DNA from: a virus
Lineage: Duplodnaviria > Heunggongvirae > Uroviricota > Caudoviricetes
IMG/VR virus record: IMGVR_UViG_3300028805_001692
Span: 1-45,612 of that record
DNA length: 45,612 nt
Direction: 5' to 3' (one strand)
Shown: positions 6,555-16,382 of the stretch, piece by piece
Numbering within the stretch: the first letter of the stretch is position 1
How the letters are laid out: each line of letters begins with the position of its first letter
Notes under the pieces: generated by a model
Seen by the model: the letters and a program-made list of their open reading frames with translations, nothing else
Databases searched by the model: none
Told to the model about the DNA's origin: nothing
Translations under genes and position numbers: made by a program

Positions 6555-8615
6555 TTAGAACATGTATTTAACCGACACGAAGAAATTCGTTGGGGCATCT
6601 GGCATATAGAGTGGCTTACCAGTATTTGACAGCACACCAGTCTGGATGTTATCACGGTTGGTGATGTTGTTGAGGTGTCCGCTAATAAGGAAGTTACTCA
6701 GTTTCACACTACCGTATAAATTAAGCTGCCATAGGTCTGGAACTGTAAACTCGTTATCCAAGTCGAGATACATATGACTTCGATACTTGTACTCAAGACC
6801 AAACGACCACATCTTATCACGCCACTCAACAGACTGGTTAAACGTACATCCTGGGGTAAGTACATGTGTCTTAGTACCATATACATCCGTCTTAATTTTG
6901 TTGTTCGAATAGGATGAGTTGTTAATGAAGTGAAGCTTGTCAATCGGCTCATAATCGAAATATAACTCAATACCCATACGATGACTGTTGTCTGCCTTCT
7001 CGTGCTCTGGTAGACCGTTTAAGCCAAGTGTACCTGTCAGTGAACGCTCGTTCTCGAAAATCATGGCAAACAGGTTAAGGTTGGCATTCAGTCGCTTAGT
7101 GGCAATGTTCCAACCAAGCTCGAAGTCATTTGATACCTCAGCATCTGTTGTTGTGAGAGAACCTGGATACCACTCATTACCACCGAACATGTCTGTACGT
7201 GTAGGTTCACGGTGAGCACGTGCATACTTGAAATAAGCCTCATTGTGTTTGTTGAACTTATAACTAGCATCAGCACCAAAGTTAAAGAAATTCCACTTTG
7301 TATCCTCGTCGAACTTAACAAGCGGGTTCATAAGGTCACAATACCAGAAGTTAACGCCACGATACTGTCCATTGGCTGATAATGTAAGTCCACCGAATGA
7401 TTTCTTAATATTGGCGAATAACTCATAATCCATCTTATGGCCACGATTATCGTAATACTCTGATGGGTCGATGTTACGTGCCTTATCGATGTTGCGTTCG
7501 TCAAGGTAGTGCTCACGCTCGAACTTATAGATATTAGTCCCTACCGTAATAGAACCATTGTCGATGTAATATCGTGCTGCTGCATTACCGCCATACATAT
7601 GCTGCTTAAGACCGTAGTTATACAACATTCCAGTCTCAATAGGTTCATCACACAGTCGAAGCATATAGTTGTCAAGGTCGAAACGATATTCACCAAGCAG
7701 CATGTTCCAATATAATGAAGAGGTAAACAATACCTTATCACTAAACCATCCGTTATATGTGAACTTATTTACAGTCTGAAAGAAATTATCGTCCTCGTCC
7801 TTGGTACAGCCATTTATCTTACGGTTCTTACTCAGTTCCTCCATAGTAGCACCAATGTATCCCTGCCCATTACGATGGTATCCTGTAATCGATAGAAAAT
7901 CCACAGAACTCTTATCGTTAATGAAGTAACCAAGCTTGAGACCAAGTGACTGCGAGTTATTCGAACTATGCTCACGATAACCATCAGTCTGTGATTGAGT
8001 GGCACGAACATGTAATGCCCACTTACCCATGAGTCCTGTATTAATGTTGGCAGATGTCTTGAATGAATAGAAACTACCAGCACCGAACTCCGCATAAGAC
8101 GTAGTATTCTTCAGTAGGTCAACAGAGCTGATGTTGATACTTCCGCCATACGATGCAGTTCCTGGGTTATAGGTACTTGTACCACGTCCTACATCAATTG
8201 TACCAGCATCTGCCATAATATCTGGGCTGTTGGCAAAGTAACAACCAAAGTCCTCAGCCTCATTCCAGGGCATACCATCCAACGTAACATTGATACGTGT
8301 CTGGTCTAATCCACGAATACGGAAATAACCATAACCGAAGTCAGTGCCGTTGTCGCTGAAAGCAAAGATGGAAGGCATCTGAGCAAACAACCAGGAAGGC
8401 TCTTGACCATAGTTGCTGGAGAGGATTACCTCAGAGTTGATAGTACTTCCAAGCATCGGGGCTGCATTCCGATAGAAGGAGGTGACGGTAAACTCGTCCA
8501 GTGTCTGGTTAATTAACGTATCAGTACTCTCGATTCCATCAACGTTGTCGATGGGGTCAGCGTATGACATGGTTGCCATTGCCATACACATAAACAAACA
8601 GATAAACTTTTTCAT
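6555..8615 (-). CDS. TonB-dependent outer-membrane receptor
   Basis: Signal peptide; plug motif FRIRGLDQTRINVTLDGMPWNEAED; C-terminal VSVKYMF beta-signal. The plug resembles, from recall, Bacteroides vitamin (thiamine-type) receptors. Confidence 0.85.
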   Translation of the reverse strand: MKKFICLFMCMAMATMSYADPIDNVDGIESTDTLINQTLDEFTVTSFYRNAAPMLGSTINSEVILSSNYGQEPSWLFAQMPSIFAFSDNGTDFGYGYFRIRGLDQTRINVTLDGMPWNEAEDFGCYFANSPDIMADAGTIDVGRGTSTYNPGTASYGGSINISSVDLLKNTTSYAEFGAGSFYSFKTSANINTGLMGKWALHVRATQSQTDGYREHSSNNSQSLGLKLGYFINDKSSVDFLSITGYHRNGQGYIGATMEELSKNRKINGCTKDEDDNFFQTVNKFTYNGWFSDKVLFTSSLYWNMLLGEYRFDLDNYMLRLCDEPIETGMLYNYGLKQHMYGGNAAARYYIDNGSITVGTNIYKFEREHYLDERNIDKARNIDPSEYYDNRGHKMDYELFANIKKSFGGLTLSANGQYRGVNFWYCDLMNPLVKFDEDTKWNFFNFGADASYKFNKHNEAYFKYARAHREPTRTDMFGGNEWYPGSLTTTDAEVSNDFELGWNIATKRLNANLNLFAMIFENERSLTGTLGLNGLPEHEKADNSHRMGIELYFDYEPIDKLHFINNSSYSNNKIKTDVYGTKTHVLTPGCTFNQSVEWRDKMWSFGLEYKYRSHMYLDLDNEFTVPDLWQLNLYGSVKLSNFLISGHLNNITNRDNIQTGVLSNTGKPLYMPDAPTNFFVSVKYMF

Positions 8616-9447: not shown

Positions 9448-9466
9448 AGCTGTATGATTTTGGTTG

Positions 9467-9508
9467 CAAAGATACACAAAAAAATCGAGATAACCAAATA
9501 TTATCTCG
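9467..9508 (-). terminator. Terminator closing the iscB-array transcript, fused to the next host-type promoter
   Basis: Inverted repeat CGAGATAA/TTATCTCG (9486-9508) plus U tract on the minus strand; -33 TTTG 9498-9495, -7 TATCTTTG 9474-9467. Confidence 0.8.
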
Positions 9509-9524: not shown

Positions 9525-10259
9525 AACTAATAATGATACAATATACGTCTTGGATGAATTGAAATTTTGCCGATTTCGAGATACAAGTGTATAATGCTAC
9601 CGCATCAAAGAAAAGGACTGGCTGGAGTATCCTCAAAATTATATTGGTATGTGTGGGAAAGTTGGATTTTAAACAAAACTAATAGTGATACAATTCGGAT
9701 GTTGTCATCGTCATGAGTCCTAAAAGAAGGATAAGCTGGAAAAGTTATTTGACGAAGTAATATATTCCAAAACTAGTATCTAAGATTCACCCTCCTAAAA
9801 TAAATAGTAGGATTTTAAACAAAACTAATAGTGATACAATTTGCTGAGCGCACAGGTTCACTTGAAATCGGTATTAGTAAACAGTAGCTGTTCAACCGAA
9901 GCGAACCGCATAATAATAATAACTAATAATGATACAATGGCATACTGCTTCCGCATATCCGCCTCACTAAATAGATAGTAGACTTTTGAATAAAACTAAT
10001 AATGATACAATGCAGTCTTATACGAGTTAAAAGCTCACGCTAGGCGTGAGCATTAACATCAACACGTTGAATCCCAATGGGGTAGTAGGCTTTTGAACAA
10101 AACTAATAGTGATACAATTGACAGGTTTCAGAAGTTAATTCTATATTCTTCGTCATCGGTTCAGTCATACCCTTCAATATCCGTCTTCGCATCATTTGGT
10201 TCTGCCTTTCTTATAATATTGGTTCACCACATAATCATAGAAACTAATAATGATACAAC
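9525..10259 (-). CRISPR. Non-canonical CRISPR-like array: 7 repeats, long irregular spacers, associated with IscB
   Basis: 18-nt core ATTGTATCA(C/T)TATTAGTT (minus strand) at 9525-42, 9677-94, 9823-40, 9921-38, 9994-10011, 10101-18 and 10242-59 (last copy starts with G). Four copies extend to about 36 nt (...TTTT(G/A)TT(C/T)AAAA(G/T)(C/T)C(T/A)ACT). Core-to-core gaps 134, 128, 80, 55, 89, 123 nt, all unique. Confidence 0.85.
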
Positions 10260-10272
10260 CCTAATTTCCATC

Positions 10273-11547
10273 TTAATCATGAGTGAACTGAAGCAGATAA
10301 CTTCCATGCATCCTTCTTAAGAATCTCACATCAGAAGTTCTTACTGTAAATGGAGTCATTTTACCTTTTGCATTTGGCTTTCTTGTGACATAATTACCGT
10401 TAATATCCTTTAAGTACACTCTCCCATTTGAACTTCCACTAATAAAACACTTAATTCCGTTCCATAGAACAAGGTCTCTTTTCTGTAAACCACTATTACC
10501 TATCATATGGGAAGTTGTTTCAGCTTTACGTATACCTCCCTTTTGAGGAACTTGCCTATGTAAAGACCTAGTATGCCTTCTGTTAAGCTTATACTGGTAG
10601 AATCCACCAAGTCTGTCAGCCTCCAGGTTACCAGTCATGACAAATGCATCGCTAGTATGGGACTTCTCAATCCCACCCCTTAAGCGGTTAGCTTTGGTTA
10701 TGTAACCATACGTAGTATTAACATTGCCATATAGCTCTTTTACTTTCCAGAACACGGGTTTACCGATTGTCGATACTGATGTTTGGTTTTTGAAACTAGT
10801 AAGCTTTTTCACATTAAGTTCAAATTCACCATTATGTAGCTTCTTATGACAATCCTCACACAATGTGATAAGATTCCCAACCGCATCAGTACCGCCTTGT
10901 GACCTATATTGAATGTGGTGTACGTGAAGTGTTTCGCACCCACTTTCTCCGTGACAATGCTGGCACTCGTGTCTATCCCTAATTAAAACATACTCTCTGG
11001 CGTTTTCAAACCCAAACAATTCACCATGCTGGTACTCCTCACCTTGAATATCTGGATTCTGTAGTTTCTGAATATCAAACGGAGCAATTTCAATGGTTAT
11101 GTTAGAAACAGGCAGAATCTTATGGACACGCTGAATGGCTTTCATGTGTTCGTCAAACCTATTCCTTGATGTAGGGGTTAACCATCCATTTGGTCTTTTC
11201 CTATTATCAAAACGTGGTTTTCTGTACCTAGTCTTTCTGTTACGTCTAGTACTCCTAGATTCACGCCTAGAAAGTATAAGACCTGGAATCTCTTTACTGC
11301 GAAGTTCTACTTGAGCAGCATAAAGTTCTTTAGAAGATGTTGATGCAGATAAACCTATATACCTAGAACCAGTATCAACCCCCAGATTTATTTCTTGGAG
11401 GTTCTCGCCAGAAACATAGTCAAGCTGGATTGTAAAAGGAACGGTAGAAACCACGTGGGCTTTACCTTCCTTCAAAAGTCTCCTAACTTTTCCATGCCTT
11501 GTTGTTGGCATTATAGGCTTGCCATCCTTGTTTAATACGTAAACCAT
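10273..11547 (-). CDS. iscB: IscB RNA-guided endonuclease (OMEGA), 424 aa
   Basis: PLMP domain (MVYVLNKDGKPIMP); RuvC-I GVDTG; Arg-rich bridge helix; RuvC-II IEIAPFD; HNH with CxxC...HHI...NL..LC..CH; RuvC-III SHTSDA. Catalytic motifs appear intact. Confidence 0.92.
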   Translation of the reverse strand: MVYVLNKDGKPIMPTTRHGKVRRLLKEGKAHVVSTVPFTIQLDYVSGENLQEINLGVDTGSRYIGLSASTSSKELYAAQVELRSKEIPGLILSRRESRSTRRNRKTRYRKPRFDNRKRPNGWLTPTSRNRFDEHMKAIQRVHKILPVSNITIEIAPFDIQKLQNPDIQGEEYQHGELFGFENAREYVLIRDRHECQHCHGESGCETLHVHHIQYRSQGGTDAVGNLITLCEDCHKKLHNGEFELNVKKLTSFKNQTSVSTIGKPVFWKVKELYGNVNTTYGYITKANRLRGGIEKSHTSDAFVMTGNLEADRLGGFYQYKLNRRHTRSLHRQVPQKGGIRKAETTSHMIGNSGLQKRDLVLWNGIKCFISGSSNGRVYLKDINGNYVTRKPNAKGKMTPFTVRTSDVRFLRRMHGSYLLQFTHD

Positions 11548-11559
11548 TTGTTTAATTTT

Positions 11560-11750
11560 AAAAATGTTATAAACCGTCAAATAAATGACGTTGTGTACCC
11601 ATCGCTAATGTTGGTTGGAGGTTTTCACTAGAAAGACATTCTCGCTAGCCGCAGGGTTTGGGGCTTGGGTAACAACTCCAAAGTGCCTATATATTCTCCC
11701 TCAACGTAGTCCTCGAAGGACTTAAGCTAATCGTATCATATTAGTTTTGT
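11560..11750 (-). ncRNA. Guide-less omegaRNA scaffold with 5' anti-repeat (tracrRNA-like)
   Basis: Directly upstream of iscB, same strand. Omega-RNA-type elements: UUAGCUUAAG-(GUCCU UCG AGGAC)-UACGUU, AUAGGCAC-UUUGGAG...CCCAAGCCCCAAACC-CUGC, AACAUUAGCGAUGGG. The first 21 nt are complementary to the array repeat. 3' end approximate. Confidence 0.8.
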
Positions 11751-11754
11751 GGCG

Positions 11755-11796
11755 CAAAGATATATAAAAAAAACGAGATAACCAAAAGTTATCCCG
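11755..11796 (-). promoter_or_regulatory. Host-type promoter for scaffold-iscB-array, fused to the upstream terminator
   Basis: TTTG 11786-11783, N20, TATCTTTG 11762-11755; predicted TSS about 11748-11750; hairpin 11774-11796. Confidence 0.85.
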
Positions 11797-11817: not shown

Positions 11818-12276
11818 TTATTCCATCCACCAAGGTTTCAATAAAGCTACAGAATAATTTCCAATTTTTTTATAGACATAAAGAGTCCCAGCAAAATCAT
11901 CATTAAATTCTTCAATAATCATATTCTTCAATTTCCTAGTCCCACAATTACCGAAATATAATCCAGAAATATTTTCAGCAGTATCTGTTAATTCACATTT
12001 ATCACCATTCATGAAAAACCTTAATTCATCTAATTTCTTTTTCTTTTCGTTTTCATCTTGTGCATTTTGGTACTCTTGACGCATTGACTTCAAAGTAAGC
12101 CTATTATCATTCAACACGTCCCCTAACAAATCAGTGCTAATTATGTGCGAAAGACCATTATTTGTCTTGCGTATTTTAATAAGACCATTCTCTATAGCCC
12201 TTTCACATAAATCAACGTCAAACATAAGTTTATTAAAACCGTTTAACTCTTTAAAAAAATCAATATATTCACTCAT
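11818..12276 (-). CDS. Hypothetical AT-rich protein (start MSEYIDFF)
   Basis: First ATG after the promoter at 12295-12325. Confidence 0.6.
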   Translation of the reverse strand: MSEYIDFFKELNGFNKLMFDVDLCERAIENGLIKIRKTNNGLSHIISTDLLGDVLNDNRLTLKSMRQEYQNAQDENEKKKKLDELRFFMNGDKCELTDTAENISGLYFGNCGTRKLKNMIIEEFNDDFAGTLYVYKKIGNYSVALLKPWWME

Positions 12277-12294
12277 AACTCCTATTTTTTTTTG

Positions 12295-12339
12295 CAAAGA
12301 TATATAAAAAAATCGAGATTTCAAAATAAAATCCCGATT
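12295..12339 (-). promoter_or_regulatory. Host-type promoter fused to terminator hairpin
   Basis: TTTG 12325-12322, N19, TATCTTTG 12302-12295; hairpin 12311-12339. Confidence 0.8.
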
Positions 12340-13543: not shown

Positions 13544-14035
13544 CTAACCACCATTATCCAAATTAATTACTTTAAATTCTCCCTCTTCCTTTTTCCATAT
13601 CCTTTGGTTCTTTGAACCTCTAAAGGCTAAACTAACGTCTCTTTCTTCTTCAATAAACTTACCATCTACCACATAATCAAGGTAGTTCAAAATCTCACTC
13701 ATGTGCTCTTGTACGTATTCGAGCGTAAAACCTGTATACAGCCAAATATCCTTCTCTGGATATTTCTCTTTCAATTCCTTTGCCAAGGATAAAACATCTT
13801 CATAAGAACAAAGTGGGTCGCCTCCCGAAAAAGTGACACCTTTAAGATAAGGTATCGTCAATAACTCAAATATTTTCTGTTTATCGTCATCCGTGAACTC
13901 ACGTCCACCGTTAAAATCCCATGTCTCTGGGTTGTGGCATCCTTTACAGTGATGTACGCACCCAGACACCCATATGGTTATTCTGAATCCAATACCGTTA
14001 TTTAGGTCTGGGTACGTTATCTTGTTTACTTTCAT
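13544..14035 (-). CDS. nrdG: Anaerobic ribonucleotide reductase activase
   Basis: SGCVHHCKGCHNPETW, GVTFSGGDP, FRGSKNQR; follows nrdD. Confidence 0.95.
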   Translation of the reverse strand: MKVNKITYPDLNNGIGFRITIWVSGCVHHCKGCHNPETWDFNGGREFTDDDKQKIFELLTIPYLKGVTFSGGDPLCSYEDVLSLAKELKEKYPEKDIWLYTGFTLEYVQEHMSEILNYLDYVVDGKFIEEERDVSLAFRGSKNQRIWKKEEGEFKVINLDNGG

Positions 14036-14038
14036 AAA

Positions 14039-16249
14039 TTAAAATTCTTTAATGTGCTTTACCCTATCCTTGACCTCTTCCTGCTTACCGAAGTTGAAGG
14101 CCGTCTTGTAATCCCCCGTGAGATACCCTGTCACTCTACGCAATCTGCTGATGTTCTTTCCACCGCACATTGGACAAGTATCACCCATTTCATCGGTATA
14201 TCCACAGTCCTCGCATGTGTCATTAGGTACATTAATTGCGAAGTAAGGTATGTTCTTATCCATTGCATAGAGTACTATAGCCTCAAGTGCATCTATGTTA
14301 TGTTTCGTCGTACTAGGAAGCTCTACGTATGTAATACATCCTGCTGTAGAGAAACTTGTAAGCTTAGATTCTATGTCTATCTTCTGGAATGGTGACATAT
14401 CATGCCATACTGGAACGTGCATTGAGTTTGTGAAATACTCTCTGTCAGATACATTAGGTATGACACCATATCTATCTCTGAACTTCTTAAGTGCTGTATG
14501 ACACAGGTTCTCAGCTGGTGTGAAATATACACCGAAGTTAAGCTGGTATTTCTCCTTGAAGTCCTTAATTTTCTTACTGAATAGTGTCTCTATCTCAGTT
14601 GCAAGTTTCATTCCCTCGTCGGTTGTATGGTCTGTCTGTATAAGTGCCTGTAACGTTTCAGCAAGTCCAAGCTGTCCAAGCGCAAGAGTTCCATGCTTAA
14701 GTGCTGAACGTATGCCTTCCTCTGGAACGTATCCAGCCATTGTACCATTCTCCCACATAAACTTAGCTGAAGCTGGTGACTGACTGCATATCCATTCAAA
14801 TCTCTCAATAAGCATATCCTTAGCTTCATCAATCTTCTTGGAGAGAATCTTCATAAATTCTTCTACAACCTCATCGTTGGAATATACCCTATCTTCCTTC
14901 TTAGCCTTCTCTTCAACCTTCTCCTTAGCTTCCATAGCCAATGTAGGCATGATAACGGTTACAGGGCATATATTACCTCTACCGTCTTTGAGCTGTCCGA
15001 ATCCGTTGATGTCAAATCCGTTTGCTGTCCTACAGCCCATAGTGCTGAAATAAGTCCTTGGGTCGTTAGGGTCATAGCCTGCGTTACCAGTCCAGTCACA
15101 GTTAGCGTAGTTAGGATAAAGTCTCTGTGATGTAGACTTGAGGGCAAGCTTGAATAAATCATAGTTAGGGTCTCCTTCTGCCTTATTTACACCATGCATC
15201 ATCTGGAAGATACCGCATGGGAATATAGGTGTCTTATGATGTTTTCCGACTCCCTCTATAGAACCATCAAGAAGTGCCTTGATTACCATTCTTCCCTCTG
15301 GAAGTGTGCATGTTCCATAGTTTATTGATGTGAATGGGAGTTGATTTCCGCTTCTGCTCTGTAATGTATTGAGGTTATGGTACATACCCTCAACAGCCTG
15401 TGTAAGTTCTTTCTGTGTCTGTTCAATAGCGTATGTGTATACGTTACCACTCTCCTTATATTTCTCGTCCTCTATGGACATTGAGTCATTAAACTCGCTT
15501 AAATCTTTTACTCCTTCTATATATCTTGCCCCGTTCTTGAAGTGCTTGTAGAATGATTTACGTACATATGGGACCATCGTCCAATCAAGGTGTGTTGCTG
15601 ATACACCACCAAACTGCTGTAAACTCTGTAGCTGGAAAATCACTGCAACAAGCTGCATTGCTGTATTGATACTGTTGGCTGGTCTCACATCTGTCTGTCT
15701 TGTATTGAATCCCTTTGCCAGGAGGTCATCAAACGGTATGGAAAGGCAGTTATGCATTCCAGCAGCATAAGAATCTAGGTCATGGATGTAGACTTCGTTA
15801 TTTAGGTGATTGTTTCTTGATTTCCTGGACATGCAGTACTTCAGTGCGTAGTCCTTCAATACAAGTCTATTGACCTCACCCATCCTTCCACCGAAGGAAT
15901 GTTCATCTACATTTGCATTCTGGTTTGTTACATTTGTGGCAAGGAGCTTCTTAGTAATATCCTTGTACAACTTGTCCCTGTTCTCACGAATAAGTTTATG
16001 ATTGTATCTGTAGATAATATAGGCTTTTGCAACCTCCTTGTCAACTTCCATCAGACATTTCTCTACATTATCCTGTATATCCTCTACGTGTACAGTATCG
16101 TTTGACTGAATGTTGTAAATCTTTCTGATACAATCAATTACGGTGTAGTTAGGTTCTTTCCCACATGATTCAAACGCCCTCTCAATAGCACTTTCTATCT
16201 TCTGAATTTGGAACAATTCTTCTGTTTTGTCACGCTTAATTACTTGCAT
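14039..16249 (-). CDS. nrdD: Class III anaerobic ribonucleoside-triphosphate reductase (start MQVIKRD)
   Basis: ATP cone VIKRD; HNCLSIP; MGCRT; CEDC/CPMC zinc site; RRVTGYL glycyl-radical motif. Confidence 0.95.
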   Translation of the reverse strand: MQVIKRDKTEELFQIQKIESAIERAFESCGKEPNYTVIDCIRKIYNIQSNDTVHVEDIQDNVEKCLMEVDKEVAKAYIIYRYNHKLIRENRDKLYKDITKKLLATNVTNQNANVDEHSFGGRMGEVNRLVLKDYALKYCMSRKSRNNHLNNEVYIHDLDSYAAGMHNCLSIPFDDLLAKGFNTRQTDVRPANSINTAMQLVAVIFQLQSLQQFGGVSATHLDWTMVPYVRKSFYKHFKNGARYIEGVKDLSEFNDSMSIEDEKYKESGNVYTYAIEQTQKELTQAVEGMYHNLNTLQSRSGNQLPFTSINYGTCTLPEGRMVIKALLDGSIEGVGKHHKTPIFPCGIFQMMHGVNKAEGDPNYDLFKLALKSTSQRLYPNYANCDWTGNAGYDPNDPRTYFSTMGCRTANGFDINGFGQLKDGRGNICPVTVIMPTLAMEAKEKVEEKAKKEDRVYSNDEVVEEFMKILSKKIDEAKDMLIERFEWICSQSPASAKFMWENGTMAGYVPEEGIRSALKHGTLALGQLGLAETLQALIQTDHTTDEGMKLATEIETLFSKKIKDFKEKYQLNFGVYFTPAENLCHTALKKFRDRYGVIPNVSDREYFTNSMHVPVWHDMSPFQKIDIESKLTSFSTAGCITYVELPSTTKHNIDALEAIVLYAMDKNIPYFAINVPNDTCEDCGYTDEMGDTCPMCGGKNISRLRRVTGYLTGDYKTAFNFGKQEEVKDRVKHIKEF

Positions 16250-16382
16250 AAACAAAAGTTCTTTTTTTAATAAATTATTTTCATTTTTTTCGGTCAACCT
16301 TTTGGTATAATTTTTAAATCATTGCAATGTTAAAATAAATATACCCTCGGAGGATAAAAACAAGGCCGAAAAAATAAAAAAA

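Follow-up and report, generated by a model that had tools for sequence, protein, structure and literature searches.

Directly past the stop codon of an intact iscB gene, the window (the whole stretch of 45,612 nt analysed here, corresponding to the opening 45.6 kb of G000, a giant rumen phage's virus record of 109.6 kb, 33% complete) carries an array of seven short repeats, the spacers of which appear to be mosaics rewritten at one fixed junction, the first base of the repeat that follows; the mosaic pattern is plain in the compared arrays, and the rewriting is what their sequences point to. The array probably provides guide-plus-repeat RNAs to an IscB with separate guide and scaffold, where pairing and covariation between repeat and anti-repeat are observed, while processing and cutting are presumed. 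The whole is explained, with moderate confidence, by renewal of the array of this split-guide IscB at the repeat boundary through breaking and joining of DNA together with selection.

The 17-nt repeat core occurs seven times (Table 1), against a chance expectation of 0.00 and with 0 of 100 shuffles reaching this number, and a scan of the rest of the 109.6-kb contig found no eighth copy. The start-to-start distances of the cores are 152, 146, 98, 73, 107 and 141 nt, leaving gaps of 134, 128, 80, 55, 89 and 123 nt between 18-nt cores. The initial annotation had listed spacers of 116, 110, 80, 37, 71 and 122 nt after subtraction of 36-nt repeats; the irregularity stands, but the uniform subtraction does not, as it gives 116, 110, 62, 37, 71 and 105 nt throughout, the values 80 and 122 resulting from removal of 18–19 nt after short repeats. 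The 18-nt extension is missing from the repeats at 9525, 9921 and 10242, as had been claimed, and that of the 9677 copy is cut to about 13 nt.

Table 1. Features of the IscB locus and its array in the window, in order of position.
Feature	Position	Strand	Basis or remark
Promoter of next gene, closing the array	9466..9508	-	motif family shared with 11755-11796
Repeat 7 (last), core only	9525..9542	-	
Unit 7, putative captured piece	9543..9594	-	>=52-53 nt, same hairpin-element family; final ~16 nt, predicted guide 7
Unit 7, older part	9595..9676	-	identical in L039
Repeat 6, core	9677..9694	-	followed by about 13 nt of extension
Unit 6, unique part	9695..9804	-	110 nt, source not found
Repeat 5 with extension	9805..9840	-	core 9823-9840
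Unit 5	9841..9920	-	80 nt
Repeat 4, core only	9921..9938	-	
Unit 4, unique part	9939..9975	-	37 nt, source not found
Repeat 3 with extension	9976..10011	-	core 9994-10011
Unit 3, putative captured piece of bacterial hairpin element	10012..10063	-	52 nt; final ~16 nt, predicted guide 3
Unit 3, older part	10064..10082	-	common to L039 unit 2
Repeat 2 with 18-nt extension	10083..10118	-	core 10101-10118
Unit 2	10119..10241	-	123 nt, source not found
Repeat 1, core only	10242..10259	-	
Unit 1	10260..10272	-	13 nt, directly after iscB stop
IscB (PLMP-type N terminus, RRXRR, HNH, split RuvC)	10273..11547	-	profile matches, clade alignment
Tracr-like omegaRNA scaffold, HEARO-like, without own guide	11590..11750	-	56 bits, E 6e-10, under gathering score
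Anti-repeat in scaffold	11730..11749	-	20 bp with repeat, -19.8 kcal/mol; covaries across lineages
Promoter of scaffold/iscB/array, TAnnTTTG-type -7 box	11755..11796	-	motif family of 9466-9508; predicted function

The effector, encoded on the minus strand, has 424 aa and matches IscB profiles only, without a Cas9-sized body or a REC lobe; its catalytic residues (D58, E153, H297 and D300) and the HNH residues H210/H211 and N225 are invariant across its clade. The tracr-like RNA is encoded separately from the array and has, at the sequence level, its own predicted promoter, the scaffold beginning directly 3' of a Bacteroidota-type promoter. As the anti-repeat pairs with the minus strand of the array only, the array is read on that strand, and the pairing with the minus-strand repeat sets the order within a unit as guide, then repeat. 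Guides of ~16 nt are required by IscB (PMC9640706), and the active guide should be only the ~16 nt ahead of each repeat. Contigs of RNA runs X3 and X4 cover the array, in a form that cannot reveal transcription or processing. A TonB-dependent receptor and an anaerobic ribonucleotide reductase (NrdD/NrdG), both phage-encoded, flank the locus (window 6555-8615 and 13544-16297).

This IscB sits in a tight clade (79–100% identity, next matches <=56%, tree support 100); the contigs that carry it come from samples of ruminant gut and reach 426 kb. Twelve distinct related arrays, read from assembled contigs, were compared; all 12 lie downstream of iscB and all 12 are irregular, with 55 internal gaps of 18–134 nt (mean 63, sd 31). 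The relatives thus display neither regular units of roughly 36 + 37 nt nor identical fixed spacers, the two outcomes that would have spoken against the initial annotation, and their spacers differ. Repeat cores of 15–18 nt are lineage-specific, and each is complemented by its own anti-repeat; the cognate duplexes (-17 to -20 kcal/mol) are best or near-best on the diagonal, with covariation in six lineages, which supports the proposed selection on the scaffold-pairing half of the repeat. Gene neighbours of iscB vary among lineages, and none accompanies iscB throughout. The locus adjoins a gp13-like neck gene in most lineages and a poly(A)-polymerase-like gene in one (L001/L040/L041/L054 compared with window/L030/L032/L049), gp13 having zero matches among GenBank phages, while in L049 an HNH/NUMOD4 gene occupies the slot of the window ORF at 11818-12324.

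When all units were compared, 38 unit pairs were found to share their 5' part only and 0 to share their 3' part only; these pairs are non-independent and reduce to some 13 separate cases, 3 of the pairs being tail-tail, and shared prefixes under ~19 nt may be an old repeat half. Differences between homologous units are confined to the guide position, beside the downstream repeat: window unit 7 is the same as L039 unit 6 but 10 nt longer, L032 unit 8 the same as L052 unit 5 but 25 nt longer, and window unit 3 and L039 unit 2 have 38 nt in common and then diverge. First units, which lack an upstream repeat, follow the same pattern (L041/L054, 32 nt; L001/L040, 18 nt; window/L039/X4), and so does the lone repeat ahead of the scaffold promoter in L001 and L041. 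The start of window unit 1 is common to L039, where 50 nt are added, and to run X4, where 30 different nt follow, while the initial 42–49 nt of unit 5 are found in two L039 units and 24 nt in run X4, the 3' part being unique. Shared extents range from 5 to 124 nt, and changes occur without any added repeat. No polar growth at the leader end was seen in the compared arrays, where the pairs window/L039 and L032/L052 differ inside nearly every unit, and guides turn over rapidly between the close relatives L030 and L049. A whole-unit indel was found once, mid-array (L055 vs L002); for most pairs the difference may be either a gain or a loss. The bases just ahead of the repeats carry a mild excess of A at -1 (32/67) and are otherwise motif-free. 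L054 unit 2 and L041 units 2-3 begin with sequence resembling that which flanks the last repeat, 42 nt are common to L039 units 3 and 5, and L001 unit 1 contains the 5-nt repeat start alone; new units seem to arise by copying of a repeat together with a flank of variable length.

Foreign sources were traced for two window units. Among contigs of four runs aligned to the locus (X1 may be the source sample), non-array contigs match 9542-9594 (runs X1 and X4, from two studies) and 10011-10063 (run X4), in both cases ending at the repeat's first base, the exact protospacers being seen as short assembly pieces only. A pattern search from the matching contigs led to rumen and other Bacteroidales as well as Fibrobacter genomes, and to a hairpin element of ~130 nt (z -7.5) which has no match in Rfam and was compared with the units by blastn. 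One copy (L078) matches the terminal 52 nt of unit 3 with 83% identity over 54 nt (E 2e-8), and this foreign match begins at position 38, where the sharing with L039 ends, and reaches the repeat's first base; the end of unit 7 matches a different part of the same element family. The possibility that each spacer is one contiguous foreign fragment is thereby contradicted, at least for the units at 10012-10100 and 9543-9676, which are composite. The 10 nt by which unit 7 differs from its L039 counterpart are probably a deletion in L039 ending at the repeat, as the foreign match includes them.

Copies of the hairpin element (L058-L061, L065, L068, L078, L079, L085, L103, L104 and L119; e.g. L078:1440-1600) lie just after promoters. 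Several precede defence-type genes (type II restriction-modification, ZorB, LmuA-like and HsdR-N), others precede genes for secreted or unknown proteins, and the alternative pairings of the element suggest an attenuator or a mobile-cassette site. In L036, whose IscB is that of L032, a stretch of 340 nt after repeat 1 runs antisense to an AAA_15/NsnB-like ATPase gene, the profile match extending to the repeat and stopping ~40 positions before the model end, a join which, like those in X3, may be an assembly (k-mer) chimera; L032 keeps just the first 18 nt of this stretch. Chimera or not, the unit start in L032/L036 is, by this match, a relic of a captured defence-type ATPase gene. The traced set comprises two window guides, from one element family, and this relic in one relative, with five window units left without a source. 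Directly 3' of the traced guides stand ATGGT, AAGGT and AGGGT, where the repeat has ATTGT, and the candidate TAM drawn from two guides of one element family, ANGG(T), would spare the array. That a single small element accounts for 2 of 6 guides points to selection directed against defence loci; alternatively, hairpin DNA may break or be captured more often.

No self-targets above chance were found in the 109.6-kb contig, the search of GenBank phages and plasmids for arrays or pieces returned chance matches only, and no exact guides were found in the scanned viral contigs. The 18-mer matches in L056 and L057 do not extend and were rejected as protospacers, being chance matches; comparison of the L032 and L039 arrays with Bacteroidales samples yielded promoter-like or chance matches only, L116 being rpoB. 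Searches for the host at the family level matched small families and pointed to no host. Peptide fragments resembling TIR, HEPN or HTH domains received no Pfam or PADLOC score and have no homologue.

According to the explanation favoured here, foreign DNA of free length (about 10–110 nt, perhaps >340) would be joined by its 3' end to the repeat's first base, while the position of its 5' join would vary, and homology there would be slight or absent. A 5' join upstream would overwrite the old guide, a join at the boundary would make the unit grow, and a join inside or after the repeat would copy the repeat with some of its flank and so create a new unit; further change would come from repeat-to-repeat recombination and from deletions that end at this boundary. 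Since only the last ~16 nt would serve as guide, older pieces would accumulate upstream without selection, which would lead to long irregular mosaics and to the eroded 3' half of the repeat. The chemistry would most likely consist of a break near the guide/repeat junction followed by end-joining or microhomology recombination, the donor would be host DNA fragments freed during infection, and selection would keep a perfect seed and TAM. Within this explanation the break is tentatively attributed to IscB itself, as the array DNA offers a perfect guide match and a TAM-like repeat start. The system may serve in counter-defence, a role for which the case is about evenly balanced, as the traced pieces point to host defence loci.

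A dedicated enzyme of phage or host (an integrase, HUH or ligase-like protein), recognising the 5' boundary of the repeat and joining TAM-flanked DNA to it, perhaps via the IscB-scaffold complex, is the main rival, though considered unlikely. It would accord with the exact fit of both traced junctions to the repeat's first base, where nothing of the earlier sequence remains, with the lack of suffix-sharing pairs though neutral 5' parts offer far longer targets, with the fast L030/L049 turnover, and with L041, where a further repeat lies directly after the promoter that follows the array. However, no gene travels with iscB, the opposite junction is variable, and perfect-seed selection alone predicts exact boundaries. 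It is likewise rather unlikely that jumbo phages practise a Cas1-free adaptation in which TAM-flanked host DNA of any length would be joined enzymatically to the 5' edge of the repeat, with older guides stacked upstream as a record and the nuclease aimed at the conserved hairpin element and at genes of host defence loci.

Arrays built by Cas1-Cas2 have a near-constant spacer length, full-repeat duplication and polar addition. The search for cas1, cas2 and tnpA that the initial annotation had called for found none in the 109.6-kb contig (33% complete); cas1, tnpA and reverse transcriptase were not found in G001, a 412-kb relative that is 100% complete, nor were tnpA and reverse transcriptase in G000, G001 and G002. 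In view of the mosaic spacers and their fixed junction, the claim of a guide change that today is not Cas1-like is supported, and Cas1-Cas2 as the present route is very unlikely. It is also improbable that the array as a whole is the decayed product of Cas1-Cas2, supplied in trans by a host II-C module, with repeats deleted and no other acquisition. Relatives of 51–53% identity with regular 36-nt repeats, 29–30-nt spacers and the same ATTG start and stem would fit such decay, as would the ~36 nt shared by four window repeats, the known acquisition in trans (PMC8092290) and the L055/L002 indel, but the traced pieces measure 52+ nt and not 30, changes occur mid-array, in first units and at lone repeats, the shared extents are as variable as given above with regular units in no array, and the full repeat is lost in all lineages, yet the guides are wholly different. 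As a present route this decay is already largely refuted.

The repeat itself nevertheless descends, quite probably, from the regular 36-nt CRISPR repeat of a CRISPR-associated IscB. L105/L106 (53%) and L111 (51%) are such IscBs from rumen/gut (L105:919-1290, L106, L111:1085-1300), and the L105/L111 arrays, which lie upstream and are fused to the scaffold, share the ATTG start and the terminal stem with the phage repeat. The regular-array IscBs probably still acquire in trans, as the spacers of L105 and L106 differ. A grouping of the phage clade with the regular-array clade has a tree support of 43/22, by which a sister relation is neither supported nor rejected, and P0012 (L118), another near relative, is without an array and uses a single-guide RNA. 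Decay of a once-regular array, the second origin considered by the initial annotation, is plausible for the repeat, in view of the 36+30 relatives, but fails for the lengths, because the long spacers are mosaics of foreign pieces >30 nt without a deleted repeat between them. L118 (1250-1500) is a phage-borne IscB with a very short 5' stem and no end hairpin, another immobilised form.

TnpA requires a subterminal hairpin. The phage repeats with their flank fold at 0 to -8 kcal/mol without a common hairpin, while ordinary IscB elements (L004 and L003) have end hairpins of -17 and -22 kcal/mol; L003/L004 begin with GTCAA and the window repeat with ATTGT. The proposed capture with the omegaRNA 5' stem by IS200/IS605 end chemistry is disfavoured by the absent hairpin and by the failure to find tnpA in G000-G002. 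It is thus highly improbable that TnpA, acting in trans, handles each repeat like the right end of a transposon and links it to TAM-flanked DNA, even though IscB omegaRNAs start at the right end, where the end motif is near-identical to the TAM (10.1101/2023.03.14.532601), as ATTGT is to ANGGT here, and though the fixed junction is where TnpA would cut; the start of the repeat, moreover, resembles CRISPR-IscB repeats and not the GTCAA end. Ligation of RNA to the repeat followed by reverse transcription is the most improbable of all, since, although both window pieces are sense to the element's likely transcript, the ATPase piece in L036/L032 is antisense and no reverse transcriptase was found in G000-G002.

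Returning to the split-guide IscB array renewed at its repeat boundary, the closest known systems are the CRISPR-associated IscBs, such as DelIscB and KraIscB-1 (PMC12660989, PMC11610941), and the window system is predicted to behave as a crRNA:tracrRNA system built on IscB. In both, an IscB nuclease is accompanied by several guides and by repeats pairing with an anti-repeat, cas1/cas2 are lacking at the locus, and the ATTG/CGAT terminal stem is shared with L105/L111. In the CRISPR-associated IscBs, however, an upstream array of 36-nt repeats and 29–30-nt spacers is joined to the scaffold within a single RNA, whereas the present arrays are found downstream of iscB and apart from the scaffold, with repeats of 15–18 nt and with irregular mosaic spacers that are apparently renewed at the repeat. 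Type II CRISPR-Cas9 likewise has the guide 5' of the repeat and a separately encoded, covarying anti-repeat RNA, but the present locus has a 424-aa IscB and an omegaRNA scaffold, without a REC lobe, cas1/cas2 or a fixed spacer length. Arrays filled in trans, as in type VI-B adaptation by II-C Cas1-Cas2 (PMC8092290), and phage arrays without cas1, such as Cas12r-CRISPR of Lalka phages (10.64898/2026.04.20.719267) and viral mini-arrays (PMC11656645), are alike in their variable guides, phage-borne state and lack of adaptation genes at the locus; their repeats, however, are full and host-like, their spacers uniform and their additions polar, and the window array shows none of these traits. In IS200/IS605 IscB elements (ISGst; 10.1101/2023.03.14.532601) the guide is also the DNA abutting the 5' stem and the end motif resembles the TAM, but here there is no end hairpin, no tnpA and many guides, and in most lineages the locus keeps its place next to the same phage genes.

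A literature search with limited reach into subscription journals found no published description of this rewriting pattern. To our knowledge, every described CRISPR array that gains guides relies on Cas1-Cas2, whether encoded in cis or borrowed. The window holds a multi-guide array that continues to change although no mark of a Cas1 substrate is left in it, the change being limited to the guide position. If confirmed, this would represent a second route to heritable guide updating, bear on the interconversion of omegaRNA and crRNA:tracrRNA systems, and offer a compact, testable two-RNA IscB; were an enzyme to drive it, this way of acquiring guides would be new in kind, an outcome to which limited weight is given. 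In addition, the traced pieces suggest that phages target a previously undescribed hairpin element of ~130 nt that precedes defence-type genes.

Several units have features of their own. Unit 2 (10119-10241, -) has a single protein-like frame with three in-frame TGA codons, so that a TGA-recoding source is possible; searched as a coding fragment with TGA=Trp, it returned repeat-protein noise only. In L052, unit 2 (about L052:4317-4390) has a reversed Bacteroidota-type promoter box near the guide end and may target a promoter. L001 (at 3684), L040 and L041 each carry a lone guide+repeat unit ahead of the scaffold promoter. The hairpin within the captured piece of unit 3 (window 10033-10051, -) resembles an intrinsic terminator on the array strand and could reduce guides 3-7.
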